Shown one piece after another: positions 12,367-58,176 of a stretch of 64,000 nucleotides of DNA. The notes below the pieces were generated by a model. The model searched no databases and was not told the DNA's origin. It worked only from the letters and a program-made list of their open reading frames with translations. Both the position numbers and the translations under genes were made by a program. Source of the stretch: a virus; IMG/VR virus record IMGVR_UViG_3300020442_000007, positions 1-64,000 of that record. One strand, 5' to 3'. The number at the start of each line of letters is the position of its first letter. The first letter of the stretch is position 1.

Positions 12367-12777
12367 GTGTCTGATATTGATCTAAACAAATACAAAGAAT
12401 TTGTAGATGCTGTAACATCTAATGAAAGTAAAAACAACGATGCTTTCCAAACTCGTTGGAATACATTAGAAAATCAAAGAGATGCTAACATGCCCAGACT
12501 GCTTACGGCCGCTTTTGGTTTAGGTGCAGAAGCAGGTGAATTTACCGAAATAGTAAAAAAGATTGTCTTACAAGGCAAGCCATTAGATAAAGACAACATT
12601 TTTCATATGCAGAGAGAACTAGGTGATGTAATATGGTATTGGATGCAAGGTTGTATGGCTCTTAATATTGATCCAAATGAAGTCATCCAAATGAACATAG
12701 ACAAATTAAAATCTAGATATCCTGGGGGCAATTTCTTTGCCCATTATTCCGAAAATAGAAAAGAAGGTGATATATAG
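12367..12777 (+). CDS. mazG: MazG-like nucleoside triphosphate pyrophosphohydrolase
   Basis: GLGAEAGEFTEIVKK...RELGDVIWY...NIDKLKSRYP. Confidence 0.85.
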   Translation: MSDIDLNKYKEFVDAVTSNESKNNDAFQTRWNTLENQRDANMPRLLTAAFGLGAEAGEFTEIVKKIVLQGKPLDKDNIFHMQRELGDVIWYWMQGCMALNIDPNEVIQMNIDKLKSRYPGGNFFAHYSENRKEGDI

Positions 12778-16269: not shown

Positions 16270-16925
16270 TTTCATATAGTAAAGCATCAGAATTTGCAGT
16301 TTGGGGTAATGATAATCCACTAAACTGTCAAGACTTAATTGCTTTCTGTGCTAGAGTAAGTAATCCAAGTAATCAAATGAATACTGAGACTAGTGCAAAA
16401 CTTATAAAATATTTGGTTAAGAATGCACACTGGTCTCCATTAGAAATGGTTAATGCATGTCTTGAAATTGAAACTACAAGAGACATTGCACATCAAATTG
16501 TTAGACACAGAAGTTTTAGTTTTCAAGAATTTAGTCAGCGTTATGCTAATCCTGAAGACATGGCTGATACATTTCAAACAAGAGAAGCTAGACTACAGGA
16601 CGAAAAAAACAGACAAAACAGTATTGAAATAAGTGACGAAAGTGAATTACATTATGAATGGAAACGTAAACAACAAGAAGTGATTGATCAAGCTCGTATA
16701 GCCTATGAATGGGCTATACACAATGGAATTGCAAAAGAACAAGCCCGTGTTGTATTACCTGAAGGGTGTACTAAAACTAGATTGTATATGAACGGCACAT
16801 TACGTAGTTGGATACATTATATTGAATTACGTAGTGCAAACGGTACGCAAAAAGAACATATGGAAATAGCAAAAGAATGTGCTCATGTAATTGCTAAAAT
16901 ATTTCCGCTAATGGATGAACTTTGA
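16254..16925 (+). CDS. thyX: Flavin-dependent thymidylate synthase
   Basis: RHRSFSFQEFSQRY (RHRx7S) motif, HWSPLE, EQARVVLP. Confidence 0.95.
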   Translation: MAVRLISYSKASEFAVWGNDNPLNCQDLIAFCARVSNPSNQMNTETSAKLIKYLVKNAHWSPLEMVNACLEIETTRDIAHQIVRHRSFSFQEFSQRYANPEDMADTFQTREARLQDEKNRQNSIEISDESELHYEWKRKQQEVIDQARIAYEWAIHNGIAKEQARVVLPEGCTKTRLYMNGTLRSWIHYIELRSANGTQKEHMEIAKECAHVIAKIFPLMDEL

Positions 16926-44752: not shown

Positions 44753-45160
44753 ATGCAGAAAAAAAATATAAAAAGCAAATTACATTGGACTACTGAAGTA
44801 AGTGAAAAAGGTTTACTTGCAGTGATTGGTGCTCTTACAATGGTAGCCGCTGGCTTAGATATATACGAAATGGTGGTTGTAGAAATGAAAATTGAATTAG
44901 CTGATTTATTTTTACTATTCATTTATGCAGAAATAGTTGGCATGGTGGGTGCTTTTTATGCAAGTAACAGAATACCTGTAACATTACCTATTGTTATTGC
45001 AATAACTGCCTTATGTAGACTAATTGTTTTGAATAGTAAAGATGCTGATCCTTGGTTACTTGTAGCAGAAGCGACTGCAATACTTGTATTAGCTGGTGCG
45101 GCATATTTAATGAGCATGAAGGATAAATTAAGTCTAGAAAAAGAAAGATTACGTAAATGA
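44753..45160 (+). CDS. psiE: Phosphate-starvation-inducible PsiE-family membrane protein
   Basis: LADLFLLFIYAEIVGMV...IPVTLPIVIAITALCRLI. Confidence 0.75.
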   Translation: MQKKNIKSKLHWTTEVSEKGLLAVIGALTMVAAGLDIYEMVVVEMKIELADLFLLFIYAEIVGMVGAFYASNRIPVTLPIVIAITALCRLIVLNSKDADPWLLVAEATAILVLAGAAYLMSMKDKLSLEKERLRK

Positions 45161-45498
45161 AACTACATATAAATGATATAGGCGGCGAAATTGCAAAAGA
45201 AGATGAAAGATATGTTGTAAAAGATAACACAACACTTAAAAATCTAATACTCAGTAGCACAGATTTGAAAGCAATGAAATGTACGACTGGTCATGCACAT
45301 GTAGGACAAGAAGAAATCTATAATTTTGTTAAAGGTTCGGGCAGAATGGAAATGATTGATCTCAACGGTTCTAAATATGATATTCCTTTTAAAGAAGGTG
45401 ACGTAATTTTAATTCCAGATGGCTGGTTTCATCGTGTACATGCAGGACCTTTCGGTACTTACTTTGTATGTATATTTGATGGTAAAAGGAAATATTAA
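45157..45498 (+). CDS. Cupin-domain protein
   Basis: GHAH...EEIY...GDVILIPDGWFHRV. Confidence 0.8.
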   Translation: MKLHINDIGGEIAKEDERYVVKDNTTLKNLILSSTDLKAMKCTTGHAHVGQEEIYNFVKGSGRMEMIDLNGSKYDIPFKEGDVILIPDGWFHRVHAGPFGTYFVCIFDGKRKY

Positions 45499-45902
45499 TG
45501 AAAGTAGGATTTACTTGTTCAACTTTTGACTTACTACATGCTGGTCATGTTATAATGCTTCGTGAAGCAAAAGAACAATGTGATTATCTTATTTGCGGAT
45601 TACAAATTGATCCAAGTATAGATAGAGCAGACAAGAACGCACCTATTCAAACTGTAGTTGAAAGATACACGCAATTAAAAGGTGTAGAGTATGTAGATGA
45701 GATTATTCCGTATGGAACAGAAGCTGATCTTGAAGATATATTAAGTATGTACCCAATTGATATAAGAATATTAGGTGAAGAATATAGAGATAAAGATTTT
45801 ACAGGTAAAGATATCTGTAGGAAAAGAGATATAAAATTACATTTTAACAAAAGAGACCATAGATTTAGCTCTAGCGATTTAAGGAGAAGGGTTTGTGAAT
45901 AA
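45498..45902 (+). CDS. Glycerol-3-phosphate cytidylyltransferase-like (TagD family)
   Basis: STFDLLHAGH, YVDEI, RFSSS. Confidence 0.85.
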   Translation: MKVGFTCSTFDLLHAGHVIMLREAKEQCDYLICGLQIDPSIDRADKNAPIQTVVERYTQLKGVEYVDEIIPYGTEADLEDILSMYPIDIRILGEEYRDKDFTGKDICRKRDIKLHFNKRDHRFSSSDLRRRVCE

Positions 45903-46611
45903 ACAAAATAAATTTATATTTGATGTAGACGGAACATTAACTCCAAGTAGATGTCAAATAGATATGGACTTTGCAGTATACTTTACAGATTTTTGTACAG
46001 ATAATCATGTATATCTAGTAACAGGTAGTGACAGAGAAAAAACTTTAGAACAGGTAGGTGAGGAGATATACAGTCTTGCAAAAAGGGTATATAATTGTTC
46101 AGGAAGTGATGTTTGGGAAGGTGAAAAAAATGTTTACACAAGCGATTGGAAACTACCAGAGCAGGCTAGAGAATGGTTGACAAAAGAATTAAAATCTAGT
46201 TCATTTCCATTAAGAACAGGTATACATATTGAGGATAGACCAGGAATGGTTAACTTCAGTATAGTTGGTCGTAATGCAACAATGGGTGAACGAAAGCTAT
46301 ACGTAAGATATGATACTGCAAACGAAGAAAGAGTAAAAATTGCAAAAGAATTTAAAAAACGGTTTCCTGATATTGAAGCAGTAGTCGGCGGTGAAACCGG
46401 CATAGACATATTTCCAGTAGGCAAAGATAAAGCTCAAATCGTAGAGGACTTTAATAAAAAAGATAAATTATATTTTTTCGGTGATAGAATGGATAAGGAC
46501 GGTAATGACTATTCCTTATCTAAAAAAGTACACTATGCTAGATCAGTTACTGGTTGGCAACAAACTAAAGAAACATTATGCTATCTACAAGAGGCGGGAA
46601 TAGCCGCATGA
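45895..46611 (+). CDS. HAD-IIB phosphomannomutase-like enzyme
   Basis: FDVDGTLTPSR, VTGSD, NFSIVGR, GGETGIDIFP, FFGD...GNDY. Confidence 0.8.
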   Translation: MNKQNKFIFDVDGTLTPSRCQIDMDFAVYFTDFCTDNHVYLVTGSDREKTLEQVGEEIYSLAKRVYNCSGSDVWEGEKNVYTSDWKLPEQAREWLTKELKSSSFPLRTGIHIEDRPGMVNFSIVGRNATMGERKLYVRYDTANEERVKIAKEFKKRFPDIEAVVGGETGIDIFPVGKDKAQIVEDFNKKDKLYFFGDRMDKDGNDYSLSKKVHYARSVTGWQQTKETLCYLQEAGIAA

Positions 46612-47333
46612 AAATATTAATCACAGGTCATGAAGGCTTTATTGGTAAAGTTCTTTTTGACAGACTGTGGCACAAAGGTCATGAACTAATAGGTTTAGAT
46701 ATAAAAAAAGGAGATGATATTACTAAGTGTTCCTTAGAATTTACAGATCTAGATTTAATTATACATTTAGCTGGTAAAAGTGGAGTAAGAGAAAGTTTAA
46801 ATAATCCTGGCGATTATTGGACAACAAACGTTGAAGGCACAAGAAGAATATTTGAAAGATTTAAAAAAGTAAAAATATTGTATGCAAGTTCCAGTAGTGC
46901 ATACGAGCCTACACTTAATCCGTATGCGGCTTCAAAATTTATAATGGAACAAATTGCACCACCTAATAGTTTAGGTATGAGATTTCATACTGTTTATTCA
47001 GACACCCCTAGAAAAGGAATGTTCTTAGACAAATTATTGAAAAATAAATTAGAATATGTAACTAATCACAAAAGAGATTTTATACATATAGAAGACTTGT
47101 GTGATGCTATTGAATTATTATTTGGTAAAGATTTAAACGGAATAATAGATATTGGGACAGGAATAAGTGTTAAAGTCCAAGATCTTGCACCTAATGTTCC
47201 TATCCGTCTAAATACTAAAAATGAAAGGTTATATACACAGGCAAACATACAAACATTACGGAATTTGGGCTTTAAACCTAAATACAACATAGAAAAGTTC
47301 TTGACAAACAAGAATTTAGGCACTATAATATAA
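46608..47333 (+). CDS. NAD-dependent sugar epimerase/dehydratase
   Basis: ILITGHEGFIG, ASSS, YAASK; start at ATG 46608 (ATGA overlap). Confidence 0.85.
   Translation: MKILITGHEGFIGKVLFDRLWHKGHELIGLDIKKGDDITKCSLEFTDLDLIIHLAGKSGVRESLNNPGDYWTTNVEGTRRIFERFKKVKILYASSSSAYEPTLNPYAASKFIMEQIAPPNSLGMRFHTVYSDTPRKGMFLDKLLKNKLEYVTNHKRDFIHIEDLCDAIELLFGKDLNGIIDIGTGISVKVQDLAPNVPIRLNTKNERLYTQANIQTLRNLGFKPKYNIEKFLTNKNLGTII
47301..47329 (+). promoter_or_regulatory. Sigma70-type promoter
   Basis: TTGACA-17-TATAAT before clamp-dpdA. Confidence 0.85.
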
Positions 47334-47356
47334 ACAATACAAATGGAGAAATAGGC

Positions 47357-48100
47357 ATGAAAGACATTTTACAAGACATAGTATCGCATACACATTCTTT
47401 AGGTTTCCTTAACCTAGTTAAAGTTTCCGCTGACAATGATAATACAACTATAGATTCAATGGCAGAAGACAGATCAGTGATACTATCATCGCAAACACAT
47501 AATAAAGTATCTGAATTTGATGGAACTTTTGGTATGCCTAACTTAGATAAGTTAGCATTACATTTAAAGAATCCTGAATATCAAAAAGATGCAAAACTAG
47601 AAGTAGTAAAAGCTGATAGAAACGGCGAAGAAATTCCTACACATATTCACTTTGAAAATGCTACTGGTGATTTCCAAAATGATTATCGTTTTATGAACAA
47701 ACAAATCATTGAAGAAAAATTAAAAACAGTAAAGTTTAAAGGTGCTCAATGGAATGTATCATTCAAACCAACTATTGCCGCAATAAACAGAATGAAATTA
47801 CAAAGTGCAGCACACTCTGAAGAACCAACTTTCAATGTAAAAACTGAAGACACAGGTGGGGCTACAGACTTAATTTTTAGCTTTGGCGATTCTGCTACAC
47901 ATGCTGGAAGTTTTGTATTCCAGAATGCAGTAGAAGGTAAATTAAGTCATACTTGGAGTTGGCCTGTTGCACAAGTTCAATCAATCCTTAATCTGGATGG
48001 AGAATTAACTATGAGCATAAGCGACCAAGGAGCAATGCAAATTAGTGTTGATAGTGGTATGGCAAAATACGACTATATTCTACCAGCTCAGAGTAAATAA
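47357..48100 (+). CDS. Putative DNA polymerase sliding clamp (gp45/PCNA-like)
   Basis: 247 aa alternating beta/alpha pattern, C-terminal YILPA; clamp loader and PolB are in the window. Confidence 0.6.
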   Translation: MKDILQDIVSHTHSLGFLNLVKVSADNDNTTIDSMAEDRSVILSSQTHNKVSEFDGTFGMPNLDKLALHLKNPEYQKDAKLEVVKADRNGEEIPTHIHFENATGDFQNDYRFMNKQIIEEKLKTVKFKGAQWNVSFKPTIAAINRMKLQSAAHSEEPTFNVKTEDTGGATDLIFSFGDSATHAGSFVFQNAVEGKLSHTWSWPVAQVQSILNLDGELTMSISDQGAMQISVDSGMAKYDYILPAQSK

Positions 48101-49626
48101 TGAACTGTGATCTAACTTCCACACAAAAAGATTATGCACACTTTTTGCCTGCCTTAAGTGGATTTTATGCTACTTACATAGGAAAACAAAGGTTTGACAA
48201 TTATGTTGAACCTTCACGTATTCCTTATGCTAACGGCATGGAATCTATGAATTGGTTAAACAAAAAAGATGGATTGTTTAATTATCATTGGACTTTATAT
48301 AGTGCTGGACATGCCGAGCTTGATATAAGCAAAGATGCACCTAAAGAAGATATGGTGCGTAACAGAGACAGGCAGAACAGTTGGTTGTTAGGTGATTCAG
48401 GTGGTTTCCAGATTGGTAAAGGTGTATGGGAAGGTGATTGGAAAGATCCTAACTGCCCTAAAGCAAAAAAGAAACGTGAACAAGTCCTTGCCTGGATGGA
48501 TGCATACATGGATTATGGTATGATACTTGATATTCCTGCTTGGGTGTCTAGATCACCTGCAGGTGCTAAAGCAACAGGTATTGATAATTATCAAGATGCT
48601 GTAAATGCAACAAGAATTAACAATGACTATTTTATGAAAAATAGAAATGGTAATTGTAAATTTTTAAATGTGTTACAAGGTGAAAATCATGCTGATGCAG
48701 AAGATTGGTATCAGCAAATGAAAGATTTTTGTGATCCTAAAAAATATTCAAATCATTTTAATGGTTGGTCAATGGGTGGACAAAATATGTGTGATGTTCA
48801 TCTAGTATTAAAAAGATTAGTGTCTTTACGTTTCGATGGACTCTTAGAAAAAGGCGTACATGATGTTATGCACTTTTTAGGCACAAGTAAACTAGAATGG
48901 GCTACATTACTTACTGACATACAAAGAGCAGTTCGTAAGTATCATAATGAAAACTTTATGATTACTTTTGATTGTGCAAGTCCTTTTTTAGCAACCGCAA
49001 ACGGCCAAGTTTATTGTGAACTAGAAACACAGGATAGATCAAAATGGGTGTATAGAATGGTTCCAAGCATAGACGACAAAGCCTTGGCAAAAGACACTAC
49101 ACCTTTTGGACAAGCATTTGTAAGAGAAGGCAAACATTCTAGTTTCAAAGATTCGCCACTTACAAAAAACTTAATGGCAAAAGATATTTGTGTATATGGT
49201 CCAGGAGATTTAAACAAAATAGGCAAAGAAGGAAAAACTAGCTGGGATAGTTTTAGTTATGCTATTCAAATGGGTCATAATGTATGGAGTCATATTGATG
49301 CAGTACAAGAAGCAAATAGACAGTATGATGCAGGCACTATTCCTAGTATGTTAGTACAAGAAAAATTTGACAGAGTGTTCTTTAGAGATATTGTAGAAGC
49401 AATCTTTATGACAGATAATAAAGATGAAGCAAATGCAATCATTGAAGAATTTAGTAAATTTTGGATGGAGATACCTGGTACAAGAGGTGCAGTTGGTAAG
49501 AAAACTGTAAATGCAGGTACTTACTTTGATTCATTGTTTGAAGTTGATAATACAAACGATACAACTACAGATATTGAAGAACTTGACGAAACTAAATTAG
49601 AGAGCCTTGTGGATGAGCAAAATTGA
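48100..49626 (+). CDS. dpdA: TGT-family transglycosylase (DpdA-like 7-deazaguanine DNA insertion enzyme)
   Basis: GDSGGFQ, MILDIP, NVLQG, HFLG, FDCAS motifs of the TGT fold; clustered with folE/queE/queD-like. Confidence 0.75.
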   Translation: MNCDLTSTQKDYAHFLPALSGFYATYIGKQRFDNYVEPSRIPYANGMESMNWLNKKDGLFNYHWTLYSAGHAELDISKDAPKEDMVRNRDRQNSWLLGDSGGFQIGKGVWEGDWKDPNCPKAKKKREQVLAWMDAYMDYGMILDIPAWVSRSPAGAKATGIDNYQDAVNATRINNDYFMKNRNGNCKFLNVLQGENHADAEDWYQQMKDFCDPKKYSNHFNGWSMGGQNMCDVHLVLKRLVSLRFDGLLEKGVHDVMHFLGTSKLEWATLLTDIQRAVRKYHNENFMITFDCASPFLATANGQVYCELETQDRSKWVYRMVPSIDDKALAKDTTPFGQAFVREGKHSSFKDSPLTKNLMAKDICVYGPGDLNKIGKEGKTSWDSFSYAIQMGHNVWSHIDAVQEANRQYDAGTIPSMLVQEKFDRVFFRDIVEAIFMTDNKDEANAIIEEFSKFWMEIPGTRGAVGKKTVNAGTYFDSLFEVDNTNDTTTDIEELDETKLESLVDEQN

Positions 49627-49810
49627 TAGTTTAAAAAATCATATAAAAGTTTTAGAAAATAAACATAGAGAACTTGACAAATACATAGAAAGTTGTTATA
49701 ATAACACTAACATTACAGATGAACTTAGGCGTATGAAAACATTAAAATTATGGTACAAAGACGAAATTCATAGACTTAATCAAAAGTTAGTGCATATGGT
49801 GTTAAAATGA
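49613..49810 (+). CDS. DUF465/YdcH-like small coiled-coil protein
   Basis: LENKHRELD...MKTLKLWYKDEIHRL. Confidence 0.55.
   Translation: MSKIDSLKNHIKVLENKHRELDKYIESCYNNTNITDELRRMKTLKLWYKDEIHRLNQKLVHMVLK
49674..49702 (+). promoter_or_regulatory. Sigma70-type promoter inside the DUF465-like ORF
   Basis: TTGACA-17-TATAAT. Confidence 0.75.
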
Positions 49811-50325
49811 AAAGAGACTATCAAGATATATCGGCAGATGATGCAACATTTTTTACTGGTAAAGAAGTAGAAAAAACTCCTGCATTTGGCTTAAAAACTT
49901 TATTCGTAGTTGGTATACAAGATACAACTAAAATTCTAAATTGGTATCATACAGAAAACTGTGAGCATATCTTTTTTGGTGCTAATCATAGCTTTAGAGC
50001 TGACAATCATATTACATGGGATCAATGGGAAAATATGATACAAGAATTTTTGGATAAAGATATTTTATGTTCTCTTGATATTCCTCTATCAAATGCAGAA
50101 ACATTTAATGATAGTAGACTAGTAGAATATGATAATTTTATTCCACAAATACGTGTACCATTACCATATATTAGACTTTGGAATTATAATACAATGATTA
50201 AAATTGATGATAAAGGTTTTGATCAAAGTAATCCTGGTGTTTGGTGCCATAGTTTACATGATTTAATGGATAGAGAAAAATTTACAGATTGGGGCAAATA
50301 TAGCCTTGACAAAGTATTAGAGTGA
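49807..50325 (+). CDS. Hypothetical protein in deazaguanine cluster
   Basis: GKEVEKTP..GLKTLFV, HIFFGANHSF, SNPGVWCH. Confidence 0.65.
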   Translation: MKRDYQDISADDATFFTGKEVEKTPAFGLKTLFVVGIQDTTKILNWYHTENCEHIFFGANHSFRADNHITWDQWENMIQEFLDKDILCSLDIPLSNAETFNDSRLVEYDNFIPQIRVPLPYIRLWNYNTMIKIDDKGFDQSNPGVWCHSLHDLMDREKFTDWGKYSLDKVLE

Positions 50326-50334
50326 GTGTAAAAT
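50306..50334 (+). promoter_or_regulatory. Sigma70-type promoter
   Basis: TTGACA-17-TAAAAT before the QueD-like gene. Confidence 0.7.
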
Positions 50335-50824
50335 GTTAGATATTAATAATATAAATGAACGTGAGCATGAACCTTATTGGGAATATATGGGTCGACGCTT
50401 AAGAGAGGAAAATGACAATATGACGTTAAATAATGCTGAAAGAAGTATCTGGGTAACCTTTAAAAAAGAAGGTATCCATAAATATCCAGGAGCAGAGAGT
50501 GATCCAAAACTTGCAACAGGCGATTGGGACGATGTATCGTTTCTTGGCTATCCTCACCGTCATATTTTTCACTTCAGGGTGCGGATTGAGGTGTTCCACG
50601 ACGATAGAGAGATCGAGTTTATACAATTCAAGCGATGGCTCGAAAGACTTTACAGTACTGATAAGAGTGATGAGGTGCTCATTTTAGATCATAAATCCTG
50701 CGAAATGATTGCAGATGAACTTTATGAAAAAGTTTCTACAAAGTATCCCGGCCGCTTTGTTGAAATTGAAGTCTCCGAAGACGGAGAAAATGGCTGTCAA
50801 ATCTACTACCCGAAACCTAAGTAA
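50333..50824 (+). CDS. QueD/PTPS-like T-fold enzyme (true start probably downstream, e.g. 50420)
   Basis: EGIH...HRHIFH, IEF, SCE, EVSEDGENG; the annotated ATG overlaps a -10 box. Confidence 0.65.
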   Translation: MLDINNINEREHEPYWEYMGRRLREENDNMTLNNAERSIWVTFKKEGIHKYPGAESDPKLATGDWDDVSFLGYPHRHIFHFRVRIEVFHDDREIEFIQFKRWLERLYSTDKSDEVLILDHKSCEMIADELYEKVSTKYPGRFVEIEVSEDGENGCQIYYPKPK

Positions 50825-50836
50825 GGATGAAAGAAA

Positions 50837-51037
50837 ATGAATACAAACTTTCCGCCAGTGGATCAAGTGTTTGATGACTTGGAGAAGTTTAGAGAGTATT
50901 GTCGTTTTGAAGGAAAACCGTATAATGAAAAATTTCTTTATAATGACAACTCACCTGTTTGGCAATCTTACAAACGATGGCAACATTGGATGAAGAATAA
51001 AAAGAACAAAAAAACAAATAAGAGGACGAAGCATTAA
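50837..51037 (+). CDS. Hypothetical protein
   Basis: 66 aa; VFDDLEKFREYCR. Confidence 0.55.
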   Translation: MNTNFPPVDQVFDDLEKFREYCRFEGKPYNEKFLYNDNSPVWQSYKRWQHWMKNKKNKKTNKRTKH

Positions 51038-52104
51038 TGACAATTTATATTGTAGACATCGAAGCAGTAGACACACGTTATACAAAACAATGGAAAGAAC
51101 ATCTTCCTGTGCAACTGCGACGTGCTACAAATGATGAAGTTGTTGTTATAAGCGGGGGAGAGACGCCTCAGGCTACTACGCCTGGGGCATTTCTTAACTT
51201 CGGTGGCACTAATGTTTACAAGTCTAAGCAATTAGAACAAATTGGTAAATATTTTTGCGATGGACTTATTAAAGACGGCGATTATTTTATCTACACCGAT
51301 GCCTGGAATCCTACAGTTATTCAATTACGTTATATGGCAGAACTATTGGGTGTTAACATTCGCATTGGTGGTCTCTGGCATGCAGGTAGTTATGATCCAC
51401 AAGATTTCCTAGGTAGACTTATAGGTAATAAACCTTGGGTAAGACTAGCTGAACAGTCTATGTTTGAAACATATGATCATAATTTTTTTGCAACTAACTT
51501 CCACATAGAAATGTTTGGTAATACTTTACTTGCTTGTATGCAAGAAGATTATGAACAAGAAGGTAAAATTGTACGTGCAGGATGGCCAATGGAGTATCTT
51601 GCTAGTTCATTAGAACAGTACAAAGGTATGCCTAAAAAAGATTTAATTTTATTTCCACACAGGATTGCTCCTGAAAAACAGGTTGATATATTTAGAAATC
51701 TAAAAGATAAATTACCACAATATGAATTTATAGTTTGCCAAGATCAACAATTAAGTAAAAATGAATACCACAATTTACTAGGTCAAGCCAAACTTGTGTT
51801 TAGTGCAAATCTACAAGAGACACTAGGTATAAGCTGGTATGAAGGAGCCTTAGTAGGGGCTTTGCCTATGGTTCCAGATAGACTTAGTTATACTGAAATG
51901 GCATTAGATACATTTAAATATCCAAGTGAATGGACTGAATCTTACAATTCATACATATCTAATCAGCAAAAAATTGTAGATAAGATTACAGACTATATGG
52001 AAAATTATGAAAAATACCTTCCTAAATTAATTACACAAGTTGATATGTTAAAGAAAGAATATTTTTCTGGTATAGACTTATATAAGGAGATTAAAAATGG
52101 GTGA
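51037..52104 (+). CDS. GT-B glycosyltransferase (GT4-like)
   Basis: FPHRIAPEKQ, QETLGISWYEG (Ex7E), VPDRLSYTE. Confidence 0.8.
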   Translation: MTIYIVDIEAVDTRYTKQWKEHLPVQLRRATNDEVVVISGGETPQATTPGAFLNFGGTNVYKSKQLEQIGKYFCDGLIKDGDYFIYTDAWNPTVIQLRYMAELLGVNIRIGGLWHAGSYDPQDFLGRLIGNKPWVRLAEQSMFETYDHNFFATNFHIEMFGNTLLACMQEDYEQEGKIVRAGWPMEYLASSLEQYKGMPKKDLILFPHRIAPEKQVDIFRNLKDKLPQYEFIVCQDQQLSKNEYHNLLGQAKLVFSANLQETLGISWYEGALVGALPMVPDRLSYTEMALDTFKYPSEWTESYNSYISNQQKIVDKITDYMENYEKYLPKLITQVDMLKKEYFSGIDLYKEIKNG

Positions 52105-52417
52105 CGATAAAATTACAATTAGTAATATTGACTACACTATGGCGTCAAATGAGTATGGTATTACTGACTCCGGTAGCGAATATGTTATAAATTTGACTAG
52201 CACTTCAGATACTTCATGTGTTACTACCCATTCAACATTTGCTCCTACTTTTACATATGACTTAGGATTAGATAAAGAATTAGATTTAATAGATTTTGAC
52301 GAAATTGAAGAAATGTGTGAAGAATATCCTGGTTTAAAAAATGTTTATTTAAAATTCAAACATGTATATGACCTTGTAAGACAAGATTGGGTAGGTAAAC
52401 AAAAAGATGTTGTTTAA
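52097..52417 (+). CDS. Hypothetical protein
   Basis: 106 aa; MCEEYPGL motif. Confidence 0.55.
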   Translation: MGDDKITISNIDYTMASNEYGITDSGSEYVINLTSTSDTSCVTTHSTFAPTFTYDLGLDKELDLIDFDEIEEMCEEYPGLKNVYLKFKHVYDLVRQDWVGKQKDVV

Positions 52418-52832
52418 TTTTTTAAAAGATCGTAAAAGAGTAATACTTGATCGTGTAGGACAAAAACCTTACTTAATACGTTACTATTTGTTCTTAAAAG
52501 AACGCAAATGGTTTCCTTTCAATATCTTTTTACATAAATTTTTACAAGGTGATCCAGATGAATTACATGATCACCCCTGGCCATATTTAACAATCATCTT
52601 AAAAGGAGGATACTGGGAGGTGACACCTAAAGGTAGATTTTGGCGAGGCCCTGGTAGTTTTAGATTTGCAGGACCAAAGAGTTTACACAGAGTAGAATTA
52701 GAAAAAGGTATCAATGCATGGACACTTTTTATTCCTGGACCAAAAGTTAGAGATTGGGGATTTATTGTAAATGGAAAATGGATGCAAAATGAAAAGTATT
52801 TTAAATGGAGAGTGAGTAAGGACGCAAGATGA
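52407..52832 (+). CDS. Cupin-fold protein
   Basis: LHDHPW...GGYWE...HRVEL. Confidence 0.7.
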   Translation: MLFNFLKDRKRVILDRVGQKPYLIRYYLFLKERKWFPFNIFLHKFLQGDPDELHDHPWPYLTIILKGGYWEVTPKGRFWRGPGSFRFAGPKSLHRVELEKGINAWTLFIPGPKVRDWGFIVNGKWMQNEKYFKWRVSKDAR

Positions 52833-53389
52833 CAAATAAACATTTTTATTCTTGGACTGATGTAGAAAATATGTGTTTAAGTATTTCTAATCAAATGTTT
52901 AAGGAAAATTGGAAACCAGATTATATTGTAGGAATCACAAGAGGAGGAAATGTACCTGCTACTATACTAAGTAATATGTTAGGTATACGTTGTGAAACAT
53001 TAAAAGTAAGTTTACGTGATGATAGTACCGAAAGCGAAAGTAAATTATGGATGGCCGAAGATGCGTTCGGTTATGAACATGACATTGCTACTTTTAAGAA
53101 CAGATGGAACCCGGCCAAAAGAAAAAATATTTTAATAGTAGATGATATAAACGATACTGGGGCTACGTTTAATTGGATAAAACAGGATTGGCAGGATAGT
53201 TGTTTACCTGATCATTCTGATGTATGGGAAAAAGTTTGGGGAAAGAATGTTAGGTTTGCAGTACTGACAGATAATTTAGCAAGTGAATTTGATCAATGTG
53301 TAAATTATTGTTGTCATTCCGTGAACAAGACAGAAAAAGATGTTTGGTTAGTATATCCTTGGGAAAATGTAGGTCAGTATAATGCATAA
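52829..53389 (+). CDS. Type I purine phosphoribosyltransferase-like protein
   Basis: IVGITRGG, PRPP motif ILIVDDINDTGAT, WLVYPWE. Confidence 0.85.
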   Translation: MTNKHFYSWTDVENMCLSISNQMFKENWKPDYIVGITRGGNVPATILSNMLGIRCETLKVSLRDDSTESESKLWMAEDAFGYEHDIATFKNRWNPAKRKNILIVDDINDTGATFNWIKQDWQDSCLPDHSDVWEKVWGKNVRFAVLTDNLASEFDQCVNYCCHSVNKTEKDVWLVYPWENVGQYNA

Positions 53390-53564
53390 GGATAAGAAAA
53401 ATTACATCAAAGCACTTGAAAAAAGTGTAGCAGAAGATATAGAAACATTAAAAAAAATGCAAGAAAAAAATTCTAAGTTTCAACACATGCAACCAGTAAA
53501 AGAACAAATTTTTAAAAAAAGACGTACAATAGCAAAACTTGAACAGGAAATAAAAAATGGTTAA
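53382..53564 (+). CDS. Hypothetical small protein
   Basis: 60-aa ORF overlapping both neighbours. Confidence 0.45.
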   Translation: MHKDKKNYIKALEKSVAEDIETLKKMQEKNSKFQHMQPVKEQIFKKRRTIAKLEQEIKNG

Positions 53565-53955
53565 ACCTTGGACGAACGTTTTGATTGATACTAAAGACTA
53601 TACTGTATATAAAGATGGTTATCCGGTTACAGAAGGACATGTTCTTTTTGTACCCAAAGAAGATAATTGGAAATCAATGGTTACTTGTTTCAAAGCCGCA
53701 TATAGATGGGGTTATGATTGGGTAGACCGAGGATACTGTGATGCATTTAACATTGGACAAAATGTTGGCGAGGCAGCAGGCCAAACTGTAATGTATCCGC
53801 ATATCCATCTTATTCCCCGTCGCAAGGGCGACATGGATGATCCTCGGGGAGGAGTTAGGCACGTAATCCCTGATAAAGGAAATTATAAAAAAGTGCCAGA
53901 CGCAACTAAAGAGTATTATGAACACGTTGCTAAACAGGAACGATTTGATTTTTAG
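53557..53955 (+). CDS. HIT-family nucleotide hydrolase
   Basis: YPVTEGH, GQNVGEAAGQTV, HIHLIPR. Confidence 0.9.
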   Translation: MVKPWTNVLIDTKDYTVYKDGYPVTEGHVLFVPKEDNWKSMVTCFKAAYRWGYDWVDRGYCDAFNIGQNVGEAAGQTVMYPHIHLIPRRKGDMDDPRGGVRHVIPDKGNYKKVPDATKEYYEHVAKQERFDF

Positions 53956-53972
53956 TATACAGGAGGTAAAGT

Positions 53973-54194
53973 ATGGCAAGTCAAGGTGAGTATAACAGAG
54001 AGAATATGCTAAAAGCTATTCGAGAACATGCAAATGGACACATTGCAAAACATGCAATGAATGTTGAAATTTATTTGCAAAGAGCTGCAGGTGTTGGTGA
54101 ACACCCAGATATTCTAGATGCTATTGAGAAAGAACTAGGTGTTATTGCTCAATATCATGATCAACTAGAAGTATTAGACAAGTATTTTAAATAA
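53973..54194 (+). CDS. Small hypothetical phage protein
   Basis: AGGAGG RBS; GVGEHPDI motif. Confidence 0.65.
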   Translation: MASQGEYNRENMLKAIREHANGHIAKHAMNVEIYLQRAAGVGEHPDILDAIEKELGVIAQYHDQLEVLDKYFK

Positions 54195-54198
54195 ATGC

Positions 54199-54227
54199 TT
54201 GACAAAAACCTAAATACAATGTATAAT
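54199..54227 (+). promoter_or_regulatory. Sigma70-type promoter with nested late TAAATA box
   Basis: TTGACA-17-TATAAT, with TAAATA at 54211-54216, before folE. Confidence 0.85.
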
Positions 54228-54282
54228 AAAGTAAAATTATGCATTGTATTGGCAATCCACTGCCTTAACATCGGAGAAAGAA

Positions 54283-54972
54283 ATGAGCAAAAGTGAACAA
54301 ATAAAAGCAAAATTAGAAGAAGCAGGCATTAGATATTGGGCTAATGATAACATTAGTGAAGTATTAGAAGAAGGCGACAAACAGGCACTTATTGAAGAAG
54401 CTATCCCAGCTTTTGAAAATGTATTACAAAAATTATTAATTGATACAAAGACAGATCCTAATAGCCAAGATACTGCAAGACGTATGGCTAAAATGTATAT
54501 TAATGAGATTATGTCTGGTCGTTATGATCCAATGCCTAATCCAAGTAGTTTTCCAAACTATATAGAAAATGGTTATGAAGGCATGTTGGTAGTAAGGAGT
54601 GAACTTACAAGTTTGTGTTCACATCATCACCAGACAGTAAAAGGTGTAGCATACATTGGTATTATTGCAGGACCTAAACTACTTGGATTAAGCAAATATA
54701 CACGTATTGCACAATGGTGTGCTATGAGAGGCACCTTGCAAGAAGAACTAAATGTTATGATTGCAAATGCAATACAAAAAGAAACTGGTAGTGAACACGT
54801 AGGTGTATATGTTCAAGCAACACACGGTTGTTGCGAAAACAGAGGTATTAGAGCAACTAGTAGTTTAACACAAACCACTGTACTACGTGGTGCGTTCAAA
54901 GAAGATCCTGCTACTAAAAAAGAGTTTATCGATAACGTTAAACTTCAACAGGAGTTTGCTTGTGGCAAATAA
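54283..54972 (+). CDS. folE: GTP cyclohydrolase I
   Basis: TARRMAKMY, SLCSHH, GLSK, LQE, HGCCENRG; start ATG 54283 after GGAGA. Confidence 0.93.
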   Translation: MSKSEQIKAKLEEAGIRYWANDNISEVLEEGDKQALIEEAIPAFENVLQKLLIDTKTDPNSQDTARRMAKMYINEIMSGRYDPMPNPSSFPNYIENGYEGMLVVRSELTSLCSHHHQTVKGVAYIGIIAGPKLLGLSKYTRIAQWCAMRGTLQEELNVMIANAIQKETGSEHVGVYVQATHGCCENRGIRATSSLTQTTVLRGAFKEDPATKKEFIDNVKLQQEFACGK

Positions 54973-55861
54973 ACTTAGGTATTCAGAAGCATTTTATTCT
55001 GTGCAAGGAGAAGGACGCTTTGTAGGTGTTCCTTCTGTCTTTTTAAGAACGTTTGGTTGTAACTTTCGTTGTATGAACTTTGGTACAGATGAAAAAAGAG
55101 ATCGTTGGGAACAACACAAAGATGGAAAAAAGCATAATGCTGAAGTAAAAGCACTTATCGATGCTGGTGTACACGAAACTACAAAAAATTTTAACGACTT
55201 ACCTATTATACATACAGGTTGTGATACATATGCAAGTATCTATCCTGAATTTAAACACTTTAATAAATTAGCTACTATAGATGAAGTAGTGGAACATTTA
55301 TTAAGTTTGACTCCAGAAGGTAAGTGGACACAGGACAACGGTCAAGATATTCATCTAATTTTTACCGGCGGCGAACCTCTACTGGCGTGGCAGAGATTGT
55401 ATGTCGATTTATTTAAACATCCACGAATGAGGGATTTAAAAAATGTCACATTTGAAACAAATACTACACAACCTTTACACGACGAGTTGTTCGACTATCT
55501 ACAAAATCAAAACCACTTTGAAGTCACTTGGAGTTGTTCCCCAAAACTTTCAGTTAGCGGAGAACCTTGGGAAACTGCAATTAAACCTGATGTTGCTTTT
55601 GAGTATCAGCTTGTTAACAATAGCAACATTTATCTCAAGTTTGTTGTCGCTACTCAAAGTGACTTCGATGAAGTTACTAGAGCTGTACAAGCATATCGAG
55701 ACGCAGATATCGATTGCCCAGTATATCTCATGCCGTTGGGCGGACGTTCGGAAGAGTATAACCTCAATGTTAAAGAAGTCGCCGAAGCATGTATGGAGCG
55801 AGGTTGGCGCTTCACACCAAGGCTCCACATCAGCTTATTCGGAAATGCCTGGGGAACATAA
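54962..55861 (+). CDS. queE: 7-carboxy-7-deazaguanine synthase (radical SAM)
   Basis: YSEAFYSVQGEG...VFLRTFGCNFRC...GCDT, TGGEP, FETN, SPK; GTG start after CAGGAG. Confidence 0.88.
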   Translation: MANKLRYSEAFYSVQGEGRFVGVPSVFLRTFGCNFRCMNFGTDEKRDRWEQHKDGKKHNAEVKALIDAGVHETTKNFNDLPIIHTGCDTYASIYPEFKHFNKLATIDEVVEHLLSLTPEGKWTQDNGQDIHLIFTGGEPLLAWQRLYVDLFKHPRMRDLKNVTFETNTTQPLHDELFDYLQNQNHFEVTWSCSPKLSVSGEPWETAIKPDVAFEYQLVNNSNIYLKFVVATQSDFDEVTRAVQAYRDADIDCPVYLMPLGGRSEEYNLNVKEVAEACMERGWRFTPRLHISLFGNAWGT

Positions 55862-55862
55862 G

Positions 55863-55949
55863 ATGACGTATAAAAATAAACAACATAAAACTGCAATGAA
55901 GGCTGAAATAAAAGATCCTTCGGATGCAATTAGAAAGGCAGGATGGTGA
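55863..55949 (+). CDS. Possible 28-aa micro-ORF (MTYKNKQHKTAMKAEIKDPSDAIRKAGW)
   Basis: Fills the gap exactly between the queE stop and the next gene. Confidence 0.35.
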   Translation: MTYKNKQHKTAMKAEIKDPSDAIRKAGW

Positions 55950-56335
55950 TGAACAAAGTAAAAGACTGGTTCGATAAAGCTATCGGAAAAAAGAAAAAGA
56001 AAAGTCCTCCAACTAACGAACAAACAAGACGTAAAACACTTGAGTTAGAAAAAGAAGCGGCTACAAAAGCTGGTAAACCTTGGGTAGCAGTAATCGATAC
56101 ACAAGTGAATCCGAAAGATATAAAGAACGGATTCTTTGAACTAGACTGGAATAATGAGTTTATCGAGCAACTGCTTGATGCAGGTTATTCTGGTGAAACT
56201 AATGAGCAAATAGTTGATGCATGGTTTAGAACCATTGTTATTCAAATGCTAGAAGAAGAAGGCCACTCTCCAAATAGAGATATGGGCTATATAAATGTTA
56301 TTCCAATTGATAAGAACAAAAGTGAAGTATCATGA
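55943..56335 (+). CDS. Hypothetical phage protein
   Basis: GFFELDWN motif. Confidence 0.65.
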   Translation: MVMNKVKDWFDKAIGKKKKKSPPTNEQTRRKTLELEKEAATKAGKPWVAVIDTQVNPKDIKNGFFELDWNNEFIEQLLDAGYSGETNEQIVDAWFRTIVIQMLEEEGHSPNRDMGYINVIPIDKNKSEVS

Positions 56336-56742
56336 TGCGAGAAGACCTTATGGTCCAACAACAGGTAGAATCTGTATGGCAACATATGGTTGGAGTAATA
56401 TGCCTTAACCAAACTAGTAGAATACAAGTAAAAAGAGTATTACCTGTACTTTTCGATTCATGCCCTACTCCAGAAATTCTTCTTAAAACTTCTCCAAAAT
56501 TAATTAAAGAAATAATAAAACCATTAGGAATGGTTAATGTTCGTGAAAAAAGAATACGCCAAATGTCAAAAGATTTCTTGACATGGGACGGAAATGATGC
56601 TACTATGTTATATGGAATCGGGAAATATGGCAGTGACAGTTATAGATTATTTTACAAAAATGAAATACCCGAAGACATTGGAGACCATGAACTTAAACGA
56701 TACGTAAGAGAAGAATTAAATGAGCACATACATACTAGTTGA
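56332..56742 (+). CDS. HhH-GPD DNA glycosylase, MBD4-like
   Basis: ICLNQT, LYGIGKYGSDSYRLF, DHELKRY. Confidence 0.8.
   Translation: MMREDLMVQQQVESVWQHMVGVICLNQTSRIQVKRVLPVLFDSCPTPEILLKTSPKLIKEIIKPLGMVNVREKRIRQMSKDFLTWDGNDATMLYGIGKYGSDSYRLFYKNEIPEDIGDHELKRYVREELNEHIHTS
56578..56606 (+). promoter_or_regulatory. Sigma70-type promoter inside the glycosylase gene, facing rnh
   Basis: TTGACA-17-TACTAT. Confidence 0.55.
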
Positions 56743-57709
56743 TACCGCAAATACATTTTTTAGAGCAAGGCACGTAATTAGAGGCGATCTTGATACAAAG
56801 ATTGGTATGGCGTTGCATATTACTCTTAATAGTGTAAAAAAAGCATGGAATGACTTTGAAGCAGATCATGTTGTATTTTGCTTAGAAGGACGTAGTTGGC
56901 GTAAGGATTATTACGAGCCTTACAAAAGAAATCGTACTGAAGCTAGAGATGCTTTGACAGAAGCACAACAAGAAGAAGATAAAGTATTCTGGGAAATCTT
57001 TGATGAATTTAAAGACTTCATTGGTACAAAAACTAATTGTACTATGATGCAACATCCGCAATTAGAAGCAGATGATCTTATTGCAGGTTGGATACATGCA
57101 CACCCTAAAGATAATCATGTTATCATTAGTACTGACGGTGACTTTGCACAATTGATTGCTCCTAACGTAAAGCAATATAATGGTGTCAGTAACACTATTA
57201 TTACACATGAAGGATACTTTGATGATAAAAAACGTAAGCCTGTAATAGATAAAAAAACAGGTGAGCCTAAGCCTGCTCCTAATCCTGAATTTATGTTATT
57301 TGAGAAATGTATGAGAGGCGATACTAGTGATAATGTGTTTAGTGCATATCCAGGTGTACGTAAAAAAGGCACAAAGAACAAAGTCGGCTTAATAGAAGCA
57401 TTCGCTGACAAAGATACTAAAGGATACAACTGGAATAACATGATGTTACAACGATGGGTTGATCATGATGGTAATGAGCATCGTGTATTGGACGATTACA
57501 ACCGCAATGTTACACTATGCGATTTGACTGCACAACCTAGTGACATTAGAAAAATACTTGATGATGTAATAGAAGAGCATATGATTGCAAAAGATATCAG
57601 TCAAGTAGGTATGAGATTAATGAAATTTTGTGCAAAATGGGATATGCAAAGGGTTGCAGATCAAGCTACACATTTTGCTGAACCACTAAATGCGAGGTAT
57701 CCACAATGA
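56720..57709 (+). CDS. RNase H/5'-3' flap exonuclease (T4 rnh-like)
   Basis: ILVD, YKRNR, EADD, STDGDF, GDTSDN. Confidence 0.9.
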   Translation: MSTYILVDTANTFFRARHVIRGDLDTKIGMALHITLNSVKKAWNDFEADHVVFCLEGRSWRKDYYEPYKRNRTEARDALTEAQQEEDKVFWEIFDEFKDFIGTKTNCTMMQHPQLEADDLIAGWIHAHPKDNHVIISTDGDFAQLIAPNVKQYNGVSNTIITHEGYFDDKKRKPVIDKKTGEPKPAPNPEFMLFEKCMRGDTSDNVFSAYPGVRKKGTKNKVGLIEAFADKDTKGYNWNNMMLQRWVDHDGNEHRVLDDYNRNVTLCDLTAQPSDIRKILDDVIEEHMIAKDISQVGMRLMKFCAKWDMQRVADQATHFAEPLNARYPQ

Positions 57710-58176
57710 CAATAAAAGCAAAAGAAGTTTTGAAAAATAAATTTTGGCTCGTTGAAGACGATGGTGAGAAAATTGGTACACTATCATACGACAATGAAAA
57801 ATACATGTTAAATGACAGTCATGGACAATGTCATTACTTTAATACACAAAACGCAATATCTAAAAACTTAGGAAAAATTAACTGGACTAAATTAGATATA
57901 ACAGAGACTGCACCTTCAGAAAAAATTGTACATGGTATGCCTACCAGTTGTATACCGCACAATCCTGTGTACGATGTAAAACGAAAATTACCAATGTTTA
58001 GTAAATCTAATAAATCTAAAAGCCTTTATTGTGCAGGTTATTTTATAATTAGATTTGATAAGGGTTGGGTAAAAAGTTTTTGTCCGAAGCTAATTACTAT
58101 TGAACGTTATGAAAGCAAAGGGCCTTTTAAAACTGAATTAGAAATGCGAACGGAGTTATCACGTGTCAACAAATGA
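57706..58176 (+). CDS. Hypothetical phage protein
   Basis: KSLYCAGY...FCPK motif. Confidence 0.65.
   Translation: MTIKAKEVLKNKFWLVEDDGEKIGTLSYDNEKYMLNDSHGQCHYFNTQNAISKNLGKINWTKLDITETAPSEKIVHGMPTSCIPHNPVYDVKRKLPMFSKSNKSKSLYCAGYFIIRFDKGWVKSFCPKLITIERYESKGPFKTELEMRTELSRVNK

Follow-up and report, generated by a model that had tools for sequence, protein, structure and literature searches.

How could a phage without QueC carry 7-deazaguanine in its DNA, and why should a glycosyltransferase (GT) be encoded among the genes that would put it there? The question is raised by the IMG/VR virus record IMGVR_UViG_3300020442_000007 (165,479 bp, completeness ~47%), of which the first 64 kb form the stretch analyzed here, referred to below as the window. 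Deazaguanine DNA modifications are a main phage escape from restriction and CRISPR. A sequence-only reading of the window had proposed a QueC-less 7-deazaguanine DNA-modification cluster with an embedded GT at 48100-55861. Our analysis supports this proposal, and the open reading frames (ORFs) on which it was built are all present on the plus strand, at the positions collected in Table 1. We find that the core of the cluster very probably follows the route built around the protein DpdL and that the GT probably belongs to it, and we tentatively propose that the deazaguanine is further decorated with a sugar.

The deazaguanine core

Central to the answer is a T-fold protein of 163 amino acids (aa) that the sequence-only reading had taken to be QueD-like. 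DpdL has been defined by Cui et al. 2023 (PMC10516641) as the QueD-derived family in which the QueD motif CxxxHGH has changed to LxxxHRHxF, and has been proposed there as the 7-carboxy-7-deazaguanine (CDG) decarboxylase of phages that have FolE, QueD and QueE and lack QueC. The window protein reads LGYPHRHIF at this place, with the His, Arg and Phe invariant in 12 relatives, while CxxxHGH is not present in it, the Cys being replaced by Leu. By tblastn it is 58.5% identical to gp125 of Acidovorax phage ACP17 and 31% to gp040 of Cellulophaga phage phiST, and a hidden Markov model (HMM) of the family finds these two proteins at 2e-49 and 6e-17; it does not match PF01242, and hhalign gives only 17% against the QueD of ACP17. 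Its PHROG family, phrog_17812, is unannotated, and a profile search of the PDB with the DpdL alignment returned no match. Because of the motif, the homology to the DpdL of ACP17 and phiST and the lack of PF01242, we identify this protein, on its sequence, as DpdL rather than QueD, and predict that it decarboxylates CDG.

FolE and QueE had been recognized in the sequence-only reading together with a phosphoribosyltransferase (PRTase) and a HIT-family protein, and all four identities are backed by family models (PF01227, phrog_2076, PF00156 and PF01230, respectively). FolE scores 128 bits against a PF01227 cut-off of 27, and the NCBIfam FolE equivalog models stay below their own cut-offs. Five NCBIfam QueE models match the QueE-like protein partially, all far below cut-off, and its Radical_SAM match is also sub-cut-off; it is homologous to the QueE of PA5oct, ACP17, phiST and Vibrio phage 2.275.O, and its real start probably lies near 54962.

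What of the missing genes? A search of the whole 165-kb record, which is ~47% complete, found neither QueC nor QueF, and a true QueD/PTPS is not in it either. The complete genomes of PA5oct, ACP17 and Phosso, which carry the same module, all encode PTPS/QueD and none of them encodes QueC, so that doing without QueC is characteristic of the system rather than a hole that some distal gene closes. That QueD is missing is best explained by the incompleteness of the record, and two marine relatives have QueD/PTPS at least 50 kb from the cluster. Synteny with the relatives G001 and G002 was tried as a way of placing QueD just beyond the 5' end of the record, and the regions are not collinear. That DpdL substitutes for QueD was considered and rejected, since relatives carry both. 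We are highly confident that the core is a DpdL-type, QueC-independent deazaguanine DNA-modification system. The sequence-only reading had offered two options, direct insertion of CDG or a QueC supplied by the host or a distal gene; because the 163-aa protein is DpdL rather than QueD, both are less likely than the published route, in which CDG becomes 7-deazaguanine, as in phiST, where every G is replaced by the 7-deazaguanine deoxynucleoside dDG (PMC10516641).

A divergent transglycosylase

Sequence searches of Pfam, NCBIfam and the PDB were unproductive for four proteins of the cluster, of 508, 163, 172 and 355 aa, of which the 163-aa protein alone had a PHROG match, and for the 508-, 163- and 355-aa proteins we used fold prediction and hhalign. 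The 508-aa protein has no Pfam, NCBIfam or PHROG match. PF01702, the tRNA-guanine transglycosylase (TGT) family, is absent even at E <= 10 both from this protein and from the whole record, and an HMM of 49 DpdA-like homologues retrieved no TGT from the PDB sequences. The TGT/DpdA-like assignment of the sequence-only reading nevertheless stands, despite the missing Pfam match: the AlphaFold2 (AF2) model has a predicted local distance difference test (pLDDT) score of 90.2, and its top Foldseek matches in the PDB are all Z. mobilis TGT (prob 1.0, E ~6e-7). Against E. coli Tgt hhalign gives 89.5% and aligns D99 (in a DSGGFQ motif), D144 and D291 with Tgt D89, D143 and D264; these catalytic or base-binding positions are invariant in 49 diverse homologues, 981 representative homologues having been collected. 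The family as a whole reaches 96.6% against ACP17 gp123, the gene in the DpdA position, and 94.8% against a Xanthomonas X1 gene annotated as queuine tRNA-ribosyltransferase; against phiST DpdA3 (CGPG_00065 / gp042) the alignment is marginal, at 46% (E 2e-4, 82 columns). Judging from the fold model and these comparisons, we take the protein to be a genuine, very divergent DpdA-type transglycosylase, and its place in a phage replication block beside a deazaguanine pathway leads us to predict that it inserts deazaguanine into DNA.

A homologue in Vibrio phage 2.275.O (L002, MG592671.1 330216-337242) lies with QueF, a YhhQ-like transporter, QueC, an amidotransferase-like protein and FolE, with neither GT nor DpdL, and therefore the same transglycosylase family appears to serve a preQ1-type pathway as well. 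In contig L093 the gene that follows the DpdA-like gene (4184-5248) has a product that by eye resembles myo-inositol-1-phosphate synthase (GVGNCAKSLVEG motif).

The glycosyltransferase and its linkage to dpdL

The 355-aa protein had been read as a GT-B glycosyltransferase, and its fold model (pLDDT 76) agrees. Foldseek matches it to BshA, MshA and PimA with prob 1.0, and closest to it in structure are retaining enzymes of families GT4 and GT20, namely BshA, MshA, sucrose-phosphate synthase (SPS) and OtsA (Z ~21; VIA Z 20-22 over ~300-318 residues for the structural matches). An EX7E motif and a basic R/K donor-phosphate motif in the C-terminal domain are what we take to be the criteria of a GT4 enzyme; here E261-x7-E269 and H208-R209..E213-K214 are invariant in 21 relatives, and six lineages retain the Glu, Arg and Lys. 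Conservation among these lineages is also strong in the N-terminal acceptor domain, over hosts that include Pseudomonas, Acidovorax, Sinorhizobium and marine bacteria. There is no Pfam match, Glycos_transf_1 (PF00534) included, and PF00534 is found in 29% of the members of one related Atlas cluster. Identity is 48% to the Phosso protein, 43% to PA5oct gp167 and 37% to ACP17 gp124.

How closely is this gene tied to the deazaguanine genes? By tblastn, GT homologues occur in 22 phage records, and in 17 of them DpdL is encoded as well, adjacent or within ~4 kb: eleven PA5oct-like phages, Phosso, two ACP17 records, Xanthomonas X1, BUDD and Burkholderia BCSR5. The GT sits within dpdL/dpdA/queE clusters in five cultured phage lineages whose gene order varies (FolE, u172, DpdA, GT, DpdL, QueE in ACP17; GT, DpdA, DpdL, QueE in X1; DpdL, GT, one gene, FolE in Phosso), at 3-4 kb from dpdL in BCSR5 and at 1-2 kb or directly adjacent in the others. 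Among ~160 IMG/VR loci (two sets of 80), dpdL lies directly upstream of the GT in each one that reaches that far. Vibrio phage 2.275.O and contigs L091-L094 have a DpdA-like gene with neither dpdL nor the GT; the GT tracks DpdL rather than a particular DpdA subtype. Co-occurrence with dpdA, which the sequence-only reading had named as a check on its proposal, was positive in PA5oct-like phages, ACP17, Phosso, X1/BUDD, BCSR5 and all marine relatives. Identity to the window protein falls in nearly the same order for GT and DpdL (Phosso, PA5oct, ACP17, X1, BCSR5, with PA5oct and ACP17 tied for DpdL), which is weak evidence because the lineages share ancestry. On these grounds we consider it likely that the GT is part of the deazaguanine pathway.

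The remaining five of the 22 records hold distant homologues, at 23% identity, beside GlmS and an LmbE-like deacetylase. In PhiXhv-12 (L089, PV764601.1 120910-124144) the distant homologue follows GlmS and an LmbE/BshB-like deacetylase, and the 227-kb Xanthomonas and Erwinia phages with such a homologue have no DpdL match; the GT of PhiXhv-12-type phages may belong to a different, amino-sugar-based system. A search of IMG/VR with the single ACP17 GT protein returned ACP17 itself only.

Two other roles for the GT were set aside. A hydroxymethyl-pyrimidine acceptor is unlikely because no ThyA-family hydroxymethylase (PF00303) is encoded in the complete genomes of ACP17 and X1; the record has none either, and PA5oct and Phosso have one very high-scoring ThyA-family gene each. 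The GT as a missing helper of decarboxylation was dropped, given that phiST makes dDG without a GT.

Organization of the region

The region is best read as a DNA-modification block within the replication operon of a marine T4-like giant phage. The GC content of the window is ~34%, every gene from 41.5 to 62 kb lies on the plus strand, and the block is syntenic with the replication module of the Pseudomonas jumbo phage PA5oct, with which it shares the order family-B DNA polymerase, sliding clamp, modification genes and 5'-3' exonuclease. In PA5oct (216595-221821) the polymerase is interrupted by a homing-endonuclease gene, whereas the window orthologue is undivided.

Table 1. Features of the replication and modification block, with positions in the window and supporting evidence.
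Feature	Position	Strand	Evidence or distribution
Family-B DNA polymerase	42083-44752	+	single 889-aa ORF
Small cupin, 113 aa	45157..45498	+	weak Cupin_1, ARD and Cupin_2 matches; in 18/80 relatives
Cytidylyl/adenylyl-transferase-family nucleotidyltransferase	45498..45902	+	PF01467, 8e-14
HAD-IIB phosphomannomutase-like protein, sugar-phosphate mutase or phosphatase	45895..46611	+	PF03332 PMM, 3e-25; TIGR01484 HAD-IIB
Short SDR NAD-dependent sugar-nucleotide epimerase/dehydratase	46578..47333	+	PF01370, 2e-24
Sliding-clamp-like replication protein	47357..48100	+	family HMM matches Phosso gene annotated sliding clamp and PA5oct gp170
Divergent TGT-fold transglycosylase, DpdA-like, 508 aa	48100..49626	+	AF2/Foldseek fold, conserved Asp, hhalign
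Small DUF465 coiled-coil ORF	49607..49810	+	PF04325, 1e-7; in 34/80 relatives
Orphan u172, 172 aa	49807..50325	+	conserved cluster member, 73/80 relatives
DpdL homologue, T-fold, QueD-derived, 163 aa	50333..50824	+	LGYPHRHIFHF; phrog_17812, 2.5e-34
Conserved 66-aa ORF between dpdL and GT	50837..51037	+	in 62/80 relatives
Retaining GT4-type GT-B glycosyltransferase, 355 aa	51037..52104	+	fold match; EX7E and HR..EK motifs
Acidic 106-aa ORF	52097..52417	+	tblastn: 55/80 relatives; no family match
Basic cupin-like protein, HxH...H metal motif, 141 aa	52407..52832	+	phrog_4786, 8e-39; 48/80 relatives
6-oxopurine PRTase	52829..53389	+	PF00156; XPRT model sub-cut-off; nearest PDB entries purine, HGPRT and XGPRT enzymes
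HIT-family nucleotide hydrolase/transferase	53557..53955	+	PF01230, 4.6e-9; PDB Hint/Fhit relatives; 53/80 relatives
Conserved 73-aa ORF	53973..54194	+	in 53/80 relatives
GTP cyclohydrolase I (FolE), first step to CDG	54244..54972	+	PF01227, 3e-37
QueE-like radical-SAM CDG synthase	54887..55861	+	phrog_2076 'QueE-like', 1e-52
5'-3' exonuclease	56720-57709	+	

The genes that the sequence-only reading assigned to 48100-55861 are located there, but the sugar-activation genes at 45157-47333 had been overlooked, and the functional cluster extends upstream to ~45157. The best NCBIfam match of the nucleotidyltransferase is rfaE domain II (heptose-1-P adenylyltransferase), at 1e-18 and sub-cut-off, and we predict that it activates a sugar-1-phosphate; GalE and heptose-epimerase models match the SDR protein below their cut-offs. 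As far as their families allow a judgment, the enzymes of this cassette could together make a nucleoside diphosphate (NDP) sugar. The 113-aa cupin is a possible sugar isomerase of the cassette, of uncertain membership. In relatives the cassette genes are relocated, yet remain within the cluster, next to the GT and dpdL, or, for the phosphomannomutase (PMM)-like gene, near QueD: the nucleotidyltransferase lies between the u172 gene and dpdL in L101, L148 and L169, the SDR epimerase directly after the GT in L103, L137, L151, L152, L159 and L167, and the PMM-like homologue ~0.7 kb from a QueD/PTPS gene in G002.

The orphan u172 has no match in Pfam, NCBIfam, PHROG or the PDB, as single sequence or as profile, and an Atlas look-up returned unnamed viral clusters only. 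Its co-occurrence with dpdA, a further check named by the sequence-only reading, held within the ACP17 cluster (gp122) and among the marine loci counted in Table 1, but in cultured phages it is limited to ACP17 and PA5oct-like phages, and the PA5oct homologue, gp121, lies 27 kb from the cluster. We regard u172 as a candidate for the missing chemistry.

The 141-aa protein had been called a cupin; it does belong to a PHROG family, but the support for a cupin is weak, the PDB cupin matches being faint ones to the Mn-cupin TM1459. It is possibly an oxygenase or isomerase, and optional in the clade. A double 2-oxoglutarate (2OG)-Fe(II) oxygenase gene is found in the cluster of 35/80 relatives: in L014 (11900-13069) and 34 other loci a 389-aa two-domain 2OG-Fe(II) oxygenase lies between the cupin and the PRTase. 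Other relatives have a 195-aa 2OG oxygenase after dpdA, and the window has neither. These oxygenases are candidates for making a hydroxyl acceptor.

The PRTase has its closest phage homologues in DpdL phages (the phiST group and Synechococcus BUCT-ZZ01), which links the enzyme with the DpdL pathway and not with the GT; its predicted role is the salvage of guanine set free or the synthesis of a deazapurine nucleotide. Of the whole region, only the 73-aa ORF (53973-54194) matches cultured phages outside the group at the DNA level, namely the pelagiphages HTVC103P, 104P and 115P and the cyanophages P-TIM40 and P-TIM68; it is a widespread marine-phage gene, probably not specific to the pathway.

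The sliding-clamp-like gene is a neighbor outside the modification pathway. A PsiE-like phosphate-starvation gene (44753-45160) follows the polymerase, and further upstream in the window lie genes for MazG (12520-12723) and ThyX (16326-16907). Directly past queE, 56332-56742 encodes a minimal 136-aa HhH-GPD (endonuclease III-like) protein, whose gene shifts among several sites within the modification cluster of relatives; it could be a glycosylase that distinguishes G from its modified form, or could serve as a decoy for END-type nucleases. Promoters of the form TTGACA-17-TATAAT precede the clamp/dpdA genes, u172, folE and dpdL, three matching at 12/12 positions (47301-47329, 49674-49702 and 54199-54227) and one at 11/12 (50306-50334), while the total promoter count in the DNA shows no excess over the shuffled expectation. 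An Rfam scan of 44000-58000 found no preQ1 or any other riboswitch.

A proposed pathway and its rivals

What would these genes do together? CDG would be made by FolE and QueE together with a QueD from another part of the genome, and DpdL would convert it without QueC, the published prediction being decarboxylation to 7-deazaguanine. The divergent TGT-fold DpdA would then swap this product for guanine in the phage DNA, and the PRTase would most likely recycle the released guanine. The GT would use a sugar nucleotide from the phage's own mutase, nucleotidyltransferase and epimerase to decorate the deazaguanine, as free base or in DNA, with u172 probably preparing the acceptor site. The outcome would be a deazaguanine that bears a sugar and protects the DNA from restriction. 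We favor this reading, a DpdL-type 7-deazaguanine system whose product is further glycosylated, while putting it somewhat short of an even chance. That the sugar ends up on a deazaguanine in DNA is, similarly, a tentative proposal that falls a little below even, and we are slightly more doubtful that it is the GT, u172 and a phage-made sugar nucleotide that attach it to 7-deazaguanine there.

Several considerations weigh against the proposed pathway. No chemistry is available for any GT-bearing phage, and the record lacks a true QueD. At its C7, 7-deazaguanine offers no obvious hydroxyl or amine as acceptor, so that an extra step or an unusual linkage (a C-glycoside, an ester on CDG or an N-glycoside) has to be assumed. 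The structural neighbors of the GT all use small soluble acceptors, no DNA glucosyltransferase is among the structural matches listed for it, and the protein is acidic, with an isoelectric point (pI) of 5.2. The sugar cassette, the cupin, the HIT protein and the PRTase are not universal in GT-bearing lineages. Deazaguanine insertion does not require the GT, since phiST has none and still makes plain dDG, and sugar-gene clusters of phages have been read as modifiers of cell-surface glycans (PMC7824862). It is because of the acceptor chemistry, the GT-less phiST and the small-acceptor relatives of the GT that we keep our estimate for a sugar in DNA low.

Might the phage simply carry plain dDG, as phiST does, with DpdL and DpdA replacing G fully or partly while the GT and the cassette act elsewhere? 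The GT would in that case target host surface glycans, in superinfection exclusion, or a phage or host protein or a small metabolite, and its linkage to dpdL would reflect shared early expression only. We consider this unlikely. Vibrio phage VP1 as well as phiST carries dDG with complete replacement of G, and the small soluble acceptors of the GT's neighbors, the surface-polysaccharide interpretation of phage sugar clusters and the distance of the PhiXhv-12 homologue from any deazaguanine genes would all suit it. It sits badly, however, with a GT-dpdL linkage that has been kept through the rearrangements of the five cultured lineages and in the ~160 marine loci, with a GT that is missing wherever the DpdA-like gene occurs without dpdL, and with sugar genes that move inside the cluster and not out of it. 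Moreover, an acceptor domain conserved over diverse hosts fits a phage-made acceptor better than variable host glycans.

Alternatively the base might be made before replication, the PRTase turning CDG or 7-deazaguanine into a ribonucleotide and later steps, possibly involving the HIT protein, host kinases and a reductase, giving a modified deoxynucleoside triphosphate for the phage polymerase; the TGT-like protein would then play a minor part, and the nucleotide may be the substrate of the GT. There is precedent in the biosynthesis of toyocamycin and tubercidin, a PRTase acting on CDG in the latter. PRTase homologues recur in DpdL phages, the dpdL of phiST, where the replacement of G is complete, is flanked by a MazG-like NTP pyrophosphohydrolase and a kinase-like ATPase, and the window has its own MazG gene. 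Guanine salvage explains the PRTase equally well, however, and neither a PRTase nor a HIT protein turned up in the ACP17 cluster or at the Phosso and X1 loci that were inspected, the PRTase match in PA5oct being weak. The DpdA-like protein has all transglycosylase catalytic residues and is itself universally kept, and Cui et al. argue that a DpdA is present in each deazaguanine phage and that the base is inserted after replication (PMC10516641). We therefore judge the pre-replicative route improbable.

That the phage inserts CDG itself (as dCDG), or relies on a host or distal QueC for preQ0 or dG+ with the 163-aa protein acting as QueD, is very unlikely: dCDG does occur in nature, in Sulfolobus virus STSV-2, and in a record 47% complete without a canonical QueD the DpdL-like protein is imaginable as a replacement, but DpdL lacks the catalytic Cys of QueD, the marine relatives, PA5oct, ACP17 and Phosso have a genuine PTPS/QueD in addition to DpdL, the three complete genomes with the module have no QueC, and phiST, with the same set of FolE, QueD, QueE and DpdL, has dDG and no dCDG.

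Relation to known systems

The favored reading, a glycosylated product of a DpdL-type pathway, can be set against the dDG system of phiST (PMC10516641), which likewise has FolE, QueE, a DpdL with LxxxHRHxF and no QueC, a Pfam-invisible DpdA of the TGT superfamily, a PRTase homologue elsewhere in the genome and a placement by replication genes. Unlike the window, phiST lacks a glycosyltransferase, u172 and genes for a sugar nucleotide; its DpdA3 has 259 aa against 508 aa here, and its cluster contains the MazG-like and kinase-like genes. A further comparison is with ACP17, whose gp119-gp126 comprise QueD, FolE, u172 (gp122), the gene in the DpdA position (gp123), the GT (gp124), DpdL (gp125) and QueE, again without QueC; it differs in having QueD inside the cluster and no PRTase, HIT, cupin or sugar cassette there. 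ACP17 was also a source of the dpdL and dpdA expressed by Cui et al. 2023, whose expression of dpdL and dpdA from phiST and ACP17 yielded no dDG in E. coli, and their paper nowhere mentions a glycosyltransferase (PMC10516641).

In PA5oct (Wroclawvirus) the syntenic block around gp168-gp162 holds the polymerase, the clamp, a DpdA-like protein (gp168, 36% identity), the GT gp167, DpdL (gp166, 58%), a weak PRTase (gp163), QueE (gp162) and the exonuclease, with no QueC and with QueD elsewhere in the genome; unlike in the window, no sugar cassette is recognizable nearby and u172 is outside the cluster. A deazaguanine system in PA5oct has been noted by Iyer et al. According to a 2025 preprint, PA5oct DNA withstands restriction enzymes whose sites contain G and is attacked by END nucleases, which recognize hypermodified DNA, and no mass spectrometry of it was reported (PMC12191111).

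The proposed logic, in which a base is modified and a sugar then transferred to it from an NDP-sugar to shield the DNA, is that of the T4 alpha- and beta-glucosyltransferases and of base J (JBP hydroxylase and JGT), except that the acceptor here would be a purine analogue and not a hydroxymethyl pyrimidine. The 2OG-Fe(II) oxygenases in the clusters of many marine relatives recall a hydroxylation that precedes glycosylation, and the T4 glucosyltransferases have the GT-B fold. In eukaryotes QTMAN/GTDC1 and QTGAL glycosylate a 7-deazaguanine derivative in nucleic acid, QTMAN being GT-B/GT4-like. These enzymes act, however, on the cyclopentenediol of queuosine in tRNA, a moiety that could not form here for lack of QueC, QueF, QueA and QueG. 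We found no paper that describes a glycosylated deazaguanine in DNA and none that mentions the glycosyltransferase of DpdL clusters.

Significance

Eight deazaguanine DNA derivatives are known to us, none of them sugar-bearing, and the product proposed here would, if confirmed, to our knowledge be the first glycosylated purine-type DNA hypermodification. The GT, u172 and the sugar-activation genes are components outside the published DpdL pathway, and they may explain why dpdL and dpdA failed in E. coli; a sugar-bearing deazaguanine may likewise account for the G modification of PA5oct. Because the module is present in cultured phages, the idea is open to direct mass spectrometry of their DNA. 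A new base would be of interest for sequencing bias, for studies of host defense (END nucleases, Dag glycosylases) and for the new enzymes it could provide. In ocean viromes the module is very common; more than 7,900 DpdA-like proteins matched, as did all 8,000 GT candidates scored, and the GT is carried by at least 579 IMG/VR loci. If our reading is right, marine giant phages of an abundant clade would carry a sugar-bearing deazaguanine, and so would cultured phages, the therapy candidate PA5oct among them.

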